Below, in pieces: positions 2,535-22,056 of a stretch of 23,431 nucleotides of DNA. Source of the stretch: a virus (Duplodnaviria; Heunggongvirae; Uroviricota; Caudoviricetes); IMG/VR virus record IMGVR_UViG_2671180360_000002; one strand, written 5' to 3'. Both the position numbers and the translations under genes were made by a program. The notes below the pieces were generated by a model. The model had not been told where the DNA came from. It made no database searches and saw only the letters and a list, made by a program, of their open reading frames with translations. Each line of letters opens with the position of its first letter. Position 1 is the stretch's first letter.

Positions 2535-5500
2535 TCAGCTGATACTGATGCCTGCGGTGGCTTTCTTCATCACCACAACCAGCAAATCGCTGATACTTGC
2601 TGTGGGATACCAGTTATTTACCAGCCATGCTGACACCGAAAACTCCAGCGTCATGTGACCGTGACCGGCAGGCATATCAATAACACCACTGTAAATCAGC
2701 GTATTATCCAGCGCGGTACGGTTATAAATTTCAGCACCGTTTTTCCGCACTATCAGACGGCATGAGGAGTAAATATCAGTATGCCCTCTCTCATGTTTAG
2801 CGCCGCTGAATGCCACCGCCGGAATAACAATTTGCCGGTCAAACGGCTGATCGTCATAAACCCTGACGGTAATGGTCCCTGATGGCCACCGCTCCGGTGC
2901 ACGGGAGTCCCGGGGGAAAGCTTTGCCCACTGTTTTAACGAGATCGCCTTCAATCTGGTTGGCGGACAGTTTTCCCAGAACCCGACAGTTTTCGTTAATC
3001 GTGACGTTGTTGAGCGTCCCGGAGTTCGCATTCACGTTACCGCTGATATCGGCATTTTTCGCCGTCAGCCGCCCGTCCGGTGTCAGGGAAAATGCCGGAG
3101 GATTACCGCCGCTGGTAATGGTGGGAGCCGTCAGGTATTTCAGGAACACTTCGTTCATGAATATCTGATCGCCCTGACCAACAAACATCGGCTTTGTGTT
3201 GCCATTCGCAGGATTAATCATCGCAATCCGGTCAGCAGCCAGAAGCACCTGACTCTGCATACCTGCTGGCGTATTCTCAATACCGGCTCCGATACCCGCA
3301 ATATAAAGGCGTCCGTCCTGCATCTGCTGCAGTTTCACGGCCCACATGCTGTTCAGGTTATTATTTGTATCAACCTGAACTTTCTGTATCTGCTGGATTG
3401 CCGCACTCTGGTCTTCCAGTTTTTTATTGACGGTCTGCGTGATTTCATTGCTGACATTCGTAATGGACGTCCTGATTTCAGCCAGGTCCGGCGCAAGCTG
3501 ACCGTTATCAATCTGCGTCCACAGCTCCTGGGCCAGATGTGTTTTCCCGATTTCTCCTTTGAAAAAATCCAGGTAACCTTCCGCATCATCGCTCGCCCGA
3601 CCGACAGCCTCCACGAATGCCGATTTGCCAACGGTGTTCACACTGCGAACGTAAAAATAATAATCATGGCCCGGTTTGATATTGATACTGGCGGCTATCC
3701 AGTACAGCGCCGTACCAAGATAACGCGCGCTGGTTTCAACCTGCCTGATATCAGCAATCCGTTTTTCCGAGAACCAGAACTCAAACTGTACCGTCGGATC
3801 ATAAACCGCAAAATGCGGCGTGGCGGTTATCTGAAAATAGCCCGGCGTCAGCTCAATCCGCGACGGTGCTGCCGGTGCGGCAATCCGGAACGATACCGAT
3901 GCCGGATCGCCCTGCTGTCCCCACGCATTTACCGCCCGGACTGTCAGCCTGTAATTTCCCAGCGCCAGTTGCGTGAAGCGGTATGTAGTTTCCGTCGTCC
4001 TGGCCGTGCTGACCAGCCGCTCACTGCCATCGTCCGCTGCCACGGTCAGGCGAAGCAGGAAGCTCACGCCCTTCACCACCTTCGGCGTGTCCCAGCGCGC
4101 CAGCACCTGATATTCCCCACTGTCTGCGGTGACTTCTGCGGTCAGGTGCTGCACCGCTGGCGGCGTGACACCATTCACCGTGCCGCTCTGGTCGCCGTCA
4201 AAGTGCGCCCCGTTATCCACGATGGCCTCTTTTTCCGGTACATGCTGCACGGCGGTGATGGCATACGTGCCGTCGTCGTTCTCACGGATACTCACGCAGC
4301 GGAACAGGCGCTGGCGCAGCATCGGCAGCTTCAGCCCCCATACACTGTATCCGGCAACGCCGTCAGGAACACGGCTCACTTTTACCTTCACGCCATCAGT
4401 GACGGACTGAACCTCCACGCTGACCGGATTGCCACTTCCGTCAACCAGGCTTATCAGCGTGGTGCCGGAAGATGGCAGCGTGATTTCACGGTCGAGCGTC
4501 AGCGTCCGGGTCTGGCTGTTCACCGCCAGCACGCGCCCGCCGGTGCTGATACCGGCATAGTCATCATCACAGATTTCAATGACATCGCCCGGTACATGGC
4601 GAAGCCCTTCTGCACCCACGCTGAAGTCCACGGTCTGCGTTTCCAGCAGTTCCGTTTTAATCAGCCACAGCCCGGCGCGGTGCACCTGCCCCCGGCTGGT
4701 ACAGCCAAAGGCATCCATCTTCGTGACGTGACGACCGTAACGGGCAATGGCCTGCGTATCCTCCACAAGCTCTGTCGCCGTCTCCCAGCCGTTGTTCGGG
4801 TCAATCCAGTTCACCTCAACGGCATTATGGCGGTCCTTCAGGGCGCTGAAGCTGTAGCGGAACGGCGCGCCATCATCCGGCATCACCACATTACTGCGGT
4901 TATAGGTCCACACCTTATCTGATGGTCGGTCCTGCACGAACGTCAGCGTCTGCCCGTTCCATACCGGCATACAGCGCATCGCCGAGCAGAAATCACTGAG
5001 CACATCCCACGCCTTGCGCTGTGTGGTCAGGTACGCATTACAGGTAATGCGCGGCTCCGTGCCGCCAAAGCCATCCGGCACTGACTGGTCGCAGTACTGG
5101 CCGATGACATACAGCGCCCATTTGTCCACATCCGCCGCACCAAGACGTTTCCCCATGCCGTAGCGTGGATGGGTCAGCATATCCCACAGACACCAGGCCA
5201 TGTTGTTGCTGTATGCCGGTTTAAACGTTCCGTCCCAGATACCGCTGTATTGCCGCGTCTGCGGGTTATAATTCGACGGCACCTGCAGAATACGCCCGCG
5301 CAGATGATAATTACGGCTCACCTGCTGGCTGCCGAACTGCTCCGAGTCCACCTGCACGCCGACCAGTGCCGTGTTCGGGTAGCCCTGTTTCACATCGATG
5401 ATTTCGGTGTATGACGACCAGAGCGTTTTGTTCTGCAGCTGGTCTGTGGTGCTGTCCGGCGTCATTCTGCGCATCCGGATATTAAACGGGCGCGGCGGCA

Positions 5501-6014
5501 GGTTATCCACCACCACCGAGGCCAGATACTGCGAGGTGGTTTTGCCCTTAATGGTGATGTCTTTTTCCGTCACCCAGCCACCATTACGCTGTATCTGAAC
5601 CAGCAGGCGGACTTCCGACGGATTCCGGTCCCCCTTTGAGGTGGTTTCCACCAGTGCCTGCACACCGAAGGTAAAGCGCAGACGGTCGATGTTTGCCGAC
5701 GTGATGGTCCGGGTGATCGGCGTGTCATATTTCACTTCCGTACCCAGCACCGTCTCGGAGCCGGAGGATTCAAATCCCTCCGGCGGTGTCTGCTCCTGCT
5801 CACCTGCCCGGAACACCACCGTGACACCGGATATATTGGTATTCCCCTCACTGTCCAGCACCGGCGTACTGTTCAGCAGCACGCTTTTTAATCCGTCCAC
5901 CGGACCTTCAACCGGCCCTTCGCTGATGGCATCGATCACACTCAGCAGCTGCGTGGACTTCAGGTTGTCCCTCGCTTCGCGCGGGGTATGCCCCTTACTG
6001 CTTCCTTTACCCAT
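2535..6014 (-). CDS. J: Tail tip / central tail fibre host-specificity protein J
   Basis: The 1159-aa ORF begins [54 protein letters not shown]..., matching the lambda gpJ N-terminus as recalled, with long collinear similarity. ATG at 6014-6012. Position after I and before lom matches lambda. Confidence 0.95.
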
Positions 6015-6026
6015 TCCTCACACTCC

Positions 6027-6056
6027 ATAAACAACAAAGCCGCCCAAAAGGCGGCT
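6027..6056 (-). terminator. Putative terminator after the lipoprotein moron
   Basis: On the minus strand a hairpin AGCCGCC-ttttg-GGCGGCT (6038-6056) is followed by the T-rich run TTGTTGTTTAT. It lies between the lipoprotein stop (6081) and the J start (6014). Confidence 0.4.
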
Positions 6057-6080
6057 CATGAGTTACGACAGGATTAACTA

Positions 6081-6419
6081 TTATTTACATGCATTAACAC
6101 TATCAGCAAAAATTTTTGGCGTTAATGCTGGTACACGTTCATAAAGAGTAAAACTACTGCCATTTCCTGCTTTTTTGATATCAAGCACAACATCATATCC
6201 CCCCATAGCCTGTGGAACTAAAAGGCTTACCCCATTCTCAATAGGAAGGGATGTTATAGGTGTTCCATTACCAGCCCATTGTCTGGATATGCAGCCTGAC
6301 AATTCATCAATATTTTTTAATGAATTACCTTCCATTACAGGTTTTCCGGATTTTACGTAATCCAAAGATTTACATCCTGTTAAGGCAATAATCGTGCAGA
6401 ATAAAATCGTTTTGTTCAT
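6081..6419 (-). CDS. Putative lipoprotein moron inserted between tail genes I and J
   Basis: ATG at 6419-6417 gives MNKTILFCTIIALTGCKSLDYV..., a classic lipoprotein signal peptide with lipobox LTGC. The mature protein is about 96 aa with two further Cys. The locus is visibly AT-rich compared with the flanking genes (judged by eye). Lambda has only about 60 nt between I and J. The six-frame track start (6431) is a TTG; the in-frame ATG is preferred. Confidence 0.6.
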   Translation of the reverse strand: MNKTILFCTIIALTGCKSLDYVKSGKPVMEGNSLKNIDELSGCISRQWAGNGTPITSLPIENGVSLLVPQAMGGYDVVLDIKKAGNGSSFTLYERVPALTPKIFADSVNACK

Positions 6420-6458
6420 ATAGCTAACCAATAGAATAATTATCAGTGTTCGATATAA

Positions 6459-6486
6459 ATATTAAATCAGTTAGAACATGAGTAAA
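6459..6486 (-). promoter_or_regulatory. Candidate sigma70-type promoter for the lipoprotein moron
   Basis: On the minus strand TTTACT (6486-6481), a 16-nt spacer, then TAATAT (6464-6459), about 40 nt upstream of the lipoprotein ATG. Judged by eye only. Confidence 0.25.
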
Positions 6487-6492
6487 ATAATA

Positions 6493-7134
6493 TTACCGCC
6501 CAATTACCACAACCTGACCACCATCCCCTTCATCTGCCGTGCTGATCTCCTGAGATGCCACACGTGACCCCACGCGCATTTCACCGTACAGAACAGGCAG
6601 GACATTGCCCTGGGCAACCATGTTATCCAGTGAGGAGAAATAGGTGTTCTGTTTGCCGTTATCCGTTGTCTGTGTACGGGGAGTTCTGGCTTTCGGTGCC
6701 AGCATCTGCGCCACACCACCAAGCGTCATCGCCGCACCCATTGAAAAGAGAATGTCACTGAAAGCGATACTGATCCCCGGCATCCAGATTGCCGTAGCAA
6801 TCAACGCCGCACCCAGCACCGCCTGAAACACACCGCCACTTTTTGCTCCCGCAAGACGCGGCACGATGTGGATCACGGCACCATTTGCCAGCGGCTCATT
6901 AAGACGGGATGATAATTCGGTTTCTCCTGCATCCCGCCCGGCAATCCGTACCTGATACCAGCCATCGCTCAGTTTCTGACGAAACGCCGGGAGCTGTGTG
7001 GCCAGTGCCCGGATGGCTTCAGCCCCCGTTTTCACACGAAGGTCGATGCGGCGGCCAAATCGTTGCAAATCCCCGTAAAGGCAGATGCGTGCCATGCCCG
7101 GTGACGCCAGAGGGAGTGTGTGCGTCGCTGCCAT
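6493..7134 (-). CDS. I: Tail tip assembly protein I
   Basis: The 213-aa translation MAATHTLPLASPGMARICLYGDLQRFGRRIDLRVKTGAEAIRALATQLPAFRQKLSDGWYQVRIAGRD... matches lambda gpI as recalled. ATG at 7134-7132. It overlaps the end of K by 103 nt, as in lambda. Confidence 0.93.
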   Translation of the reverse strand: MAATHTLPLASPGMARICLYGDLQRFGRRIDLRVKTGAEAIRALATQLPAFRQKLSDGWYQVRIAGRDAGETELSSRLNEPLANGAVIHIVPRLAGAKSGGVFQAVLGAALIATAIWMPGISIAFSDILFSMGAAMTLGGVAQMLAPKARTPRTQTTDNGKQNTYFSSLDNMVAQGNVLPVLYGEMRVGSRVASQEISTADEGDGGQVVVIGR

Positions 7135-20564: not shown

Positions 20565-21037
20565 ATATCGGCCTCATCACAACAGTCAATGACTGCCTTT
20601 TCCAGTGTATCGCGGATCTCATCAACCACAATCTGTACTTCATTCAGTTGTGATGCGGTCCACCCCCTGTCCCTCTCCAGCCGGTCAGGCCAGGTTTCCA
20701 GTACCTGAACTATCGCTTTCACCACGACAGAAAAGGACCGCCTGACATCACTGACTGGCACAAGCTGAACAGTTTCATGCTGAAATTTAAGACGCTCGCG
20801 CTCGGACTGATACCATGCCTTCCGATCATGTGGGTTCATCTCTTCATCTTCGGAAGCCGGTGGTTTTTCCAGCAACGAAATAATCAAATCCGTCAGGAGA
20901 TACATTTTTTTCTTTTCATTACTGCCTGGTGCAAGAGGAACATCCGCCATTCTGGCGGCAACAGTCTGCCGGTGCAGACCTGAAAGGGCTGCCAGTTGAT
21001 TAATATTTAACTTCATATTTTTCAGCTCGCCGTCCAT
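20561..21037 (-). CDS. Terminase small subunit (Nu1-like, HTH DNA-binding)
   Basis: A 158-aa ORF with ATG at 21037 preceded by GGAGGG and a 6-nt spacer. The N-terminal segment NINQLAALSGLHRQTVAARMA looks like a helix-turn-helix. It lies immediately upstream of the large terminase gene and about 200 bp downstream of the putative cosN. Confidence 0.8.
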   Translation of the reverse strand: MDGELKNMKLNINQLAALSGLHRQTVAARMADVPLAPGSNEKKKMYLLTDLIISLLEKPPASEDEEMNPHDRKAWYQSERERLKFQHETVQLVPVSDVRRSFSVVVKAIVQVLETWPDRLERDRGWTASQLNEVQIVVDEIRDTLEKAVIDCCDEADM

Positions 21038-21039
21038 TC

Positions 21040-21300
21040 ACATCCCTCCACATAAACCGCTGAACAAAAGTGGCTCTTTTTTTGTAAAGAAATGCCGCCA
21101 TATAAAGATGTCGAACAAAAATCAACCACAATCATCATCTTTTTAATGTTAAACACATTAAAAACAACAAGTTATGCTAATGATGATGATGACGATAAAA
21201 TCACAAAAATGCGCCTTTTTCCGCGCCGTCCGCCCCGTGTTCAGGCCCACCCCACCAGGAGGACCCGCAAAAATGATAATGGTTATCATTTTCAATGTAG
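21040..21300 (-). other. Putative cos region (cosN-like G-rich motif, candidate terminase-binding repeats, AT-rich segment)
   Basis: A non-coding region between Rz and the small terminase gene. The minus strand reads ACGGGGCGGACGGCGCGG (plus 21221-21238), whose first nine bases match the lambda cos junction ACGGGGCGG..., about 190-200 bp upstream of the small terminase start, as in lambda. Inverted ATCATCATC / GATGATGAT copies lie at 21131-21139 and 21182-21190. Confidence 0.45.
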
Positions 21301-21489: not shown

Positions 21490-21957
21490 TTATTTCAGGC
21501 ACTGAGTACGGATATATTCCTGCGCCCCTTCCAGTTGCTTGTGCATCGTCATCAGCCGCTCTCTGAGGGTGAAATAATCCCGTTCAGCGGTGTCTGCCAG
21601 TCGGGGGCCGGTTGCATTATCCACGCGGGCGGTGCCGGTGGCTTCACGCACGGGACCTGGACAGGTGGCGTTGATACGCAGGCGCTTACGACCAGCGGCA
21701 ACGTCAGCGCGAAGAGTTTCATTTTCAGCTCTCGCATCGGCTAATTCCCTCGAGTATTTTGCATCGAGCGCAGCAACATCACGCTGACGCATCTGCATGT
21801 CAGTAATTGCCGCGTTCGCCAGCTTCAGTTCTCTGACATTTTTGTCGCGCTGGGCTTTGTAGGTAATGGCGTTATCACGGTAATGATTCAGCCCCAGACT
21901 AAGCGCACCACAGGCCACCAGCATGACAATAATCACCACACACAGAACACGGTTCAT
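21490..21957 (-). CDS. Rz: Rz i-spanin
   Basis: From ATG 21957-21955: [68 protein letters not shown]..., a strong match to lambda Rz as recalled. The track ORF extends upstream from a GTG; the ATG is preferred. Confidence 0.93.
21552..21737 (-). CDS. Rz1: Rz1 o-spanin (lipoprotein, embedded in Rz in the +1 frame)
   Basis: The 61-aa translation [61 protein letters not shown] has a lipobox VSAC and a Pro-rich body, matching lambda Rz1 as recalled. It is fully embedded within Rz. Confidence 0.9.
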
Positions 21958-22056
21958 ATCACCACCAACGGATTGCCCAGACCAGAACAGCAATGGCCAC
22001 AATACGAATGGCAAATGCCATTGCCCGAATAAGTTCAGCACTCATCTTTTTAAAGT

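Follow-up and report, generated by a model that had tools for sequence, protein, structure and literature searches.

Outer-membrane lipoproteins of phages are the best-understood cell-surface change that excludes rival phages, and only a few families of them have been characterised (Cor, Llp and Rtp45). Exclusion proteins can be encoded by morons, that is, genes wedged between genes that are adjacent in related phages, with a composition unlike the surrounding genome and a terminator of their own. The gp15 moron of phage HK97, described by Cumby et al. in 2012, reportedly lies in the T-H slot of the tail genes and encodes an inner-membrane exclusion protein that blocks DNA injection and is not a lipoprotein. 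Among the lipoproteins, Llp is encoded beside the receptor-binding gene pb5 (PMC9586334), and Rtp45 of phage Rtp is a small, periplasmic, disulfide-bonded exclusion lipoprotein that binds LptDE (bioRxiv 10.1101/2025.07.07.663478). Here we analysed DNA of 23,431 nucleotides from a virus of the Caudoviricetes (IMG/VR record IMGVR_UViG_2671180360_000002), called the window throughout, in which the gap between tail genes I and J carries a gene for a predicted lipoprotein. The region is a horizontally mobile moron cassette, consisting of the gene plus a terminator, that sits within the late tail operon of a prophage of lambda-like (PPompW) type. Lipoprotein morons in tail operons are a well-known kind of element; the family of this one is catalogued as PHROG 914 yet uncharacterised. 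It is widespread, structurally distinct from the known exclusion lipoproteins, and unstudied.

A predicted lipoprotein gene in the I-J gap

All tail genes of the window lie on the minus strand. The stop codon of I at 6493 and the start codon of J at 6014 enclose a gap of 478 nt (6015-6492), whereas the lambda gap is 60 nt (I end 15444, J start 15505), which agrees with the initial annotation of an AT-rich insert of about 480 bp. In an alignment with lambda and mEp460, 435 nt of window DNA (6058-6492) stood in for about 20 nt of their junction, and in 107 phage records similarity was confined to the flanks of the region, with the insert present in none. When the GC content of the gap was compared with its flanks, as the initial annotation had proposed, it came to 0.356, the lowest of any segment of the window, with J at 0.565 and I at 0.573. 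GC at third codon positions (GC3) was 0.24 for the insert and 0.67 for the flanks. The composition of the insert is foreign. The features of the locus are as follows.

2535-6014, minus strand: host-specificity protein J, 1159 aa, flanking the gap
6027-6057, minus strand: intrinsic-terminator-like element, GAGCCGCC-TTTT-GGGCGGCTT then TGTTGTTTAT, directly before the J ribosome-binding site
6058-6492, minus strand: insert-specific DNA relative to the lambda/mEp460 I-J junction (alignment A1); phage records match its flanks only
6081-6419, minus strand: coding sequence of the 112-aa prolipoprotein (PHROG 914), ATG at 6419-6417, stop codon at 6083-6081
6087-6089, minus strand: codon of Cys111, the penultimate residue, invariant, in the modelled C-terminal helix 103-111
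6291-6293, minus strand: codon of Cys43, invariant, in the modelled helix 37-50
6372-6383, minus strand: lipobox L13-T14-G15-C16 (LTGC), with the codon of Cys16, the predicted lipidated N-terminus of the mature protein, at 6372-6374
6375-6419, minus strand: signal peptide, residues 1-15 (MNKTILFCTIIALTG), with Lys3 in the n-region and a hydrophobic core, as read from the sequence
6420-6492, minus strand: AT-rich leader of 73 nt from the I stop codon to the ATG, with weak sigma-70 candidates only
6493-7134, minus strand: tail assembly protein I (Lambda_tail_I, Pfam E = 4.4e-24)

The gap holds a single open reading frame (ORF), 6081-6419 on the minus strand, which encodes 112 aa beginning with MNKTILFCTIIALTGC and, judged by its sequence relationships, is a real gene and not a chance frame. 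Thirteen E. coli nucleotide alleles differed at 11 synonymous and 6 non-synonymous variant codons (dN/dS about 0.16), and the gene is under purifying selection. Some E. coli copies were frameshifted or truncated (L076, L077 and L078; P0002, P0007 and P0018; hit H87), so the gene appears to be lost occasionally by decay.

The N-terminus of the product has the pattern of a lipoprotein signal (charged n-region, hydrophobic core and [LVI][ASTVI][GAS]C), and both the layout of the signal peptide and the lipobox pattern were kept in nearly all of 140 family sequences. The initial annotation of one secreted lipoprotein, with an LTGC lipobox and a mature part of about 96 aa containing three cysteines, describes a pattern that is family-wide. 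After export by Sec, the product would receive its lipid at Cys16 and be processed by signal peptidase II. A +2 sorting rule for lipoproteins is established in E. coli; the residue that follows the lipobox cysteine here is Lys, not Asp, and sorting to the outer membrane by Lol is therefore predicted. Lol would place the protein in the inner leaflet of that membrane.

Cys8 falls in the signal peptide, and Cys16, Cys43 and Cys111 belong to the mature protein. These three were the only invariant columns in an alignment of 95 relatives, in which mean identity was 24% and only the cysteines and a few other residues were conserved. Among the 140 family sequences, nearly all were of about 112 aa with the lipobox cysteine near position 16; the second cysteine nearly always followed it by 27 residues (26-31 in a few), and a penultimate C-terminal cysteine was present in most. 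An AlphaFold2 model (pLDDT 84.6 overall, about 90 for the mature domain) showed a strand, a helix, four strands and a helix; the first helix contained Cys43 and the last Cys111. Because the two form an invariant pair in packed helices of an exported protein, the model suggests that they are partners in a structural disulfide. The mature protein would then fold in the periplasm as a two-layer alpha/beta domain of 96 residues whose two helices are stapled together by the Cys43-Cys111 bond.

Distribution, slots and expression signals of the family

The initial annotation did not recognise the sequence. The protein matched the PHROG 914 profile with E = 7.3e-33 (residues 1-112 on profile positions 1-118). 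All 95 aligned relatives fell in the same family, which is annotated 'unknown function'. Of 5426 complete E. coli genomes, 337 (about 6%) carried the gene, always annotated as hypothetical. A profile search of 1.84 billion cluster representatives collected 124 clusters at 50% identity, and repeating it at a relaxed E-value added nothing. Homologs in Enterobacteriaceae were 50-98% identical, those of Klebsiella, Enterobacter, Kluyvera and Jejubacter being at 50-60%, and the phages that carry the family infect E. coli, Klebsiella, Enterobacter, Yersinia, Serratia, Pseudomonas and Burkholderia. A scan of one genome per species returned one locus only; scans with P0033 and P0060 gave no matches, and alignment A4 was too divergent for locus finding.

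The family always occurred in phage DNA, nearly always abutting gene I, and its slot varied among at least five contexts, of which K-I was the commonest. The I-J slot was seen in prophages of E. coli, among them 59 viral contigs of IMG/VR and that of strain ATCC 11775, whose gene lies at 2693727-2694065 of NZ_CP033092.2. The K-I slot was occupied in Klebsiella, Kluyvera, Yersinia-like and further contigs, in Serratia phage OS31, in mEpX2/HK140, in Fraca and LMessi, and in P. aeruginosa phage D14P. HK97-like Enterobacter prophages carried the gene in the T-H slot. In B. gladioli prophages it lay in the immunity region, directly downstream of an HTH_3 repressor gene, and in Pseudomonas phage phiAH14a it belonged to the repressor-side early operon, accompanied by a terminator and by a gene that weakly resembles I. 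In one locus (L079) it stood behind an HTH_3/CI_repr gene within 4.8 kb of cargo inserted at K-I, and in another (L018) it ran antisense among structural genes. As an insertion relative to lambda-type phages, with foreign composition, the gene bears out the initial annotation of a moron.

A tail assembly or structural component of this tail lineage would suit a gene that sits in the tail-tip cluster. That explanation is scarcely credible: tails assemble in the cytoplasm, whereas the product is predicted to be exported and lipidated and would therefore take no part in their assembly. Moreover, the gene is not in lambda, in mEp460 or in 100 or more records of closely related functional phages, and its position extends to the immunity region and to antisense placement. 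Variation of slot is moron behaviour and, together with the predicted export, excludes a structural or assembly role. The initial annotation had also considered homology to a structural tail component held in the same position in related phages; none was found. We regard it as very probable that the locus is a genuine lipoprotein moron and not a structural gene.

Several of these contexts showed further cargo. In Fraca (L001:5647-5994) and LMessi (L002), the K-I slot held an unrelated second lipoprotein ORF (MRKFLSILACSLIIVGC...) immediately before the family member; the Fraca ORF had no Pfam match, and Fraca also has an annotated cor gene further downstream, which makes three lipoprotein morons in one tail region. 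The K-I cargo of L079 (4100-8900) comprised an Arc-like repressor, Bro-N and KilA-N proteins and the HTH_3/CI_repr regulator directly upstream of the lipoprotein gene, with a further lipoprotein of 149 aa, lacking a Pfam match, after the family member. A similar expansion of 4.5 kb was found in L096. K-I is a general cargo hotspot. In phiAH14a (L093:4963-5948), the record annotates the family member as two pieces, gp34 and gp33, and its true start is apparently at L093:4963; the gpI-like gene of this phage scored 21.4 bits for Lambda_tail_I, below the cut-off of 23.8, and the early-region segment looks like a transplanted piece of a tail-tip cluster. The K-I family member of vB_PaeS-D14P (L094, about 4960-5294) is unannotated in its record, and between I and J this phage has an extra ORF of 230 aa (L094:6357-7049) that matched no Pfam family. 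The Shine-Dalgarno sequence of the Enterobacter T-H copy (L011:5965-6000), GGAGG, is complementary to a CCTCC upstream of it (CCTCCTTACTTCTGGAGG), and the two may form a small translational-control hairpin.

The gene is co-oriented with I and J and would therefore be read as part of the antiterminated late operon in the lytic cycle; to judge from orientation, this would be the only certain route of expression in the window. The initial annotation had given the gene a candidate promoter of its own. A promoter scan of the window found none on the minus strand, and the sigma-70 candidates that a looser scan gave in the leader, TTTACT-17-AATATT and TTTAAT-16-GATAAT among them, were all weak, with at best 9 of 12 matches and poor spacing. 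These candidates are no better than chance. No clear Shine-Dalgarno sequence preceded the ATG in the 73-nt leader. Some relatives lie where lysogens express genes, either behind a CI-type repressor or in antisense orientation among structural genes, and at least for these copies expression in the lysogen can be argued as well.

The terminator-like hairpin before J, also part of the initial annotation, is real (6037-6057, a GC-rich stem of 9 bp with a T-rich tail), yet it is not specific to the insert, since lambda and mEp460, which have no lipoprotein gene, carry an equivalent hairpin at the same place. In mEp460 (L004) and a lambda isolate (L005) it reads AACCGCC-TCCG-GGCGGTTTT. Across the family, a canonical intrinsic terminator lay 15-45 nt past the stop codon in about 12 of 15 contexts, just before the Shine-Dalgarno sequence of the next gene, and the terminator stem of the phiAH14a copy was almost identical to that of the window (GAGCCGCC...GGGCGG). 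Because terminators accompany the gene in other slots and the phiAH14a stem is nearly the same, the lambda hairpin could be the relic of a lost cassette.

Other observations concern the window as a whole. In E. coli ATCC 11775 the carrier prophage adjoins a truncated ompW (L003:2248-2373). Since the J class of the window also matches that of PPompW phages, the window is probably an ompW-integrating lambdoid prophage. Phage PPompW_EH2246, the one PPompW phage inspected, has an I-J gap of 342 nt (L100:916-1257) with two hairpins and no convincing ORF, so that lambdoid phages as a whole vary at the I-J junction; its J has a C-terminus of the window's class, and its I and the N-terminus of its J come from a different lineage. 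The second lowest GC content of the window (0.41) was found at 20801-21300, a non-coding segment between the DUF1441 packaging gene and Rz that contains GGGCGGACGGCGCGG followed by an AT-rich run and is probably a cos/packaging site; we take the GGGCGGACGGCGCGG stretch to resemble lambda cos. The IMG/VR contig L053 contains three successive partial H-M-L-K-I-J modules, reflecting tandem or recombined prophages or an assembly artefact.

A tentative role in envelope-level exclusion

We tentatively propose that the protein serves in superinfection exclusion at the level of the envelope and/or in protection of progeny, and that its target is other than the receptor of J; we put the probability of this reading at about 40%. 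As an envelope-acting conversion factor, it would block other phages and/or stop progeny from being wasted on infected cells and debris, and it would act by binding an outer-membrane or periplasm-exposed component. The proposal is based on a design that parallels Llp and Rtp45 and on the precedent of HK97 gp15 as an exclusion moron in a tail operon. That target is unlikely to be the receptor to which the J tip of the phage itself binds, given that the allele and the receptor-binding end of J do not vary together. If infection is blocked in this way, the protein would represent a new exclusion mechanism, apparently independent of the phage's own receptor-binding domain, and would be relevant to host range in phage therapy of pathogenic E. 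coli and Klebsiella.

A number of findings weigh against this proposal. Lipidation, membrane location and the disulfide are predictions, and with no convincing promoter or Shine-Dalgarno sequence of its own in the window, expression of the gene in the lysogen is here only a candidate. No Pfam, NCBIfam or PADLOC (anti-phage defence) model matched any member of the family, and no account of it emerged from literature searches that used accession, PHROG number, descriptive name and the names of phages. The initial annotation had invited comparison with Cor, Llp and Bor. Profile-sequence and profile-PDB comparisons gave no homology of the mature domain to any of the three, and only the signal peptides aligned. 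Specifically, the profile aligned with Llp (8a60_B) over residues 1-20 only (E = 0.43), with Fraca Cor over 29 columns comprising the signal peptide and about 10 further residues, and with lambda Bor over the signal peptide only; the Pfam Bor model (PF06291) was not matched, and the Cor family PHROG 1119 was matched at about 5e-4 only, by 2 of 95 members. The structural (PDB) hit lists contained no exclusion lipoprotein, Llp included, and Rtp45 had no structural match in the PDB searches.

The pairing of the gene with J counts against exclusion of the receptor-matched kind. At 37 loci with the order I-gene-J and a complete J, the lipoprotein was 98-100% identical, yet the last 250 aa of J fell into at least four classes: 25 loci were like the window, 6 were at 56% identity to it, 3 were at 73%, and 2 had an unrelated C-terminus. 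Conversely, a J of the window's class also occurred where the gene was absent. Over its last 250 aa, the window's J was 98.8% identical to J of the VT1-Sakai and PPompW phages and 56% identical to lambda J, and the idea that this end is lambda-like, and hence binds LamB, was discarded as wrong on account of the latter figure. J itself was strongly mosaic, with about 900 conserved N-terminal residues and a C-terminal part of 150-250 aa that switches among at least four classes (L042 and L047, with a J of 1084 aa; L025, L039, L057, L065, L068 and L078; L048, L052 and L062).

These data bear most directly on a classical jammer of the Llp/Cor type, which would occupy the periplasmic face of the receptor of its own J tip and abolish adsorption. 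With J directly preceded by the gene of a small outer-membrane lipoprotein that is predicted to have a disulfide, the general layout is indeed that of llp/pb5 (PMC9586334) and of Rtp45 (bioRxiv 10.1101/2025.07.07.663478). Nevertheless, the identical allele accompanies at least four J C-terminal classes, one of them unrelated, and the window's class also occurs without it, so that the coupling of gene and receptor-binding domain fails both ways and a jammer of the cognate receptor is disfavoured. In most relatives, furthermore, the gene lies at K-I or T-H and does not adjoin J, Fraca has its separate annotated cor, and the protein resembles Llp and Cor in neither sequence nor fold. A receptor-matched mechanism is not supported by these comparisons, in which the J classes are set by sequence and bear on the receptors indirectly. 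We consider it improbable, and the analogy with receptor masking drawn in the initial annotation is weakened as far as the phage's own receptor is concerned.

A more specific possibility, and a long shot, is that PHROG 914 lipoproteins are a new class of periplasmic entry blockers that intercept ejected tail-tip proteins of an incoming siphophage instead of a surface receptor. Candidates for interception would be the hydrophobic C-terminal half of gpI, the gpK peptidase and the tape measure protein. The near-constant abutment on I (K-[gene]-I, I-[gene]-J and even the early region of phiAH14a) and the indifference to J suggest such a role, which would also explain the T-H slot in HK97-like prophages, where gp15 reportedly lies.

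Immunity against an envelope attack that does not come from phages (colicins, tailocins, periplasm-acting type VI effectors or peptidoglycan hydrolases) appears quite improbable. The predicted periplasmic location, the small disulfide-stabilised scaffold and the variable surface do resemble orphan immunity proteins, but no cognate toxin gene stood beside the gene in any context examined, and no immunity family was matched.

Comparison with described systems

Lambda Bor, which confers serum resistance, is like the window protein a prophage lipoprotein moron of similar size (both about 97-112 aa), but it is encoded beside the lysis genes on the opposite strand. The closest fold was that of the Francisella lipoprotein Flpp3 (DUF3568), with identity of 6-12%, a Foldseek E of 5.7e-3 and a TM score of about 0.5. 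The shared fold is generic, with DUF302, KA1 and the BamC N-domain scoring similarly, and Pfam DUF3568 matched none of 95 members. These likenesses touch on a different explanation, in which the protein is a host-fitness or virulence conversion factor like Bor or Lom, acting in serum resistance, adhesion or envelope robustness and benefiting the lysogen in an animal host. We hold this to be rather unlikely, while giving it some weight: Lom (1868-2467, Ail_Lom) is encoded a few kb away, the carriers include many extra-intestinal, avian and K1 strains, and Flpp3 is described as a Francisella virulence factor (bioRxiv 10.1101/2025.07.02.662053). If host fitness proved to be what is altered, the protein would be a new lysogenic-conversion factor.

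A predicted outer-membrane lipoprotein made late in infection could also be an accessory of lysis, for example an o-spanin-like lipoprotein or a lysis-timing factor. This is very improbable, because the lysis cassette of the window is already complete, with lysozyme, Rz (21490-22041) and an embedded Rz1:

21552-21737, minus strand: embedded Rz1 o-spanin, 61 aa, lipobox VSAC, Pro-rich, inside Rz 21490-22041

The product is a globular domain of 96 residues, not a Pro-rich peptide, and its gene is far from the lysis genes; the family carriers mEpX2 and HK140 are moreover listed with embedded HK97-type spanins (PMC6139136). Identity with an o-spanin (Rz1-like) was accordingly rejected, the gene lying about 15 kb from lysis genes that include the window's own Rz and Rz1 and its modelled domain being globular. 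The Tai tail-assembly-inhibition systems were likewise set aside. They act in the cytoplasm and are encoded elsewhere in the genome, for the most part ahead of the packaging module, and the paper describing them makes no mention of a lipoprotein or signal peptide (PMC11364771), whereas the window protein is predicted to be exported.

The FhuA-jamming proteins T5 Llp and Cor (phi80, N15, HK022 and T1) share several features with it. Like the window protein, they are small phage outer-membrane lipoproteins with an intramolecular disulfide (here predicted), encoded in the tail or receptor-binding-protein region, and Cor, too, comes from a moron that reads in the direction of the late genes. In contrast to them, the mature window protein has 96 aa against about 60 aa, a different alpha/beta fold, and no co-variation with the receptor-binding domain. 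Rtp45 follows the same concept but is of about 6 kDa. HK97 gp15 is, like the window gene, a siphophage moron in the tail operon, and the Enterobacter relatives share the T-H slot of HK97-like prophages; it provides a precedent for a receptor-independent block of entry.

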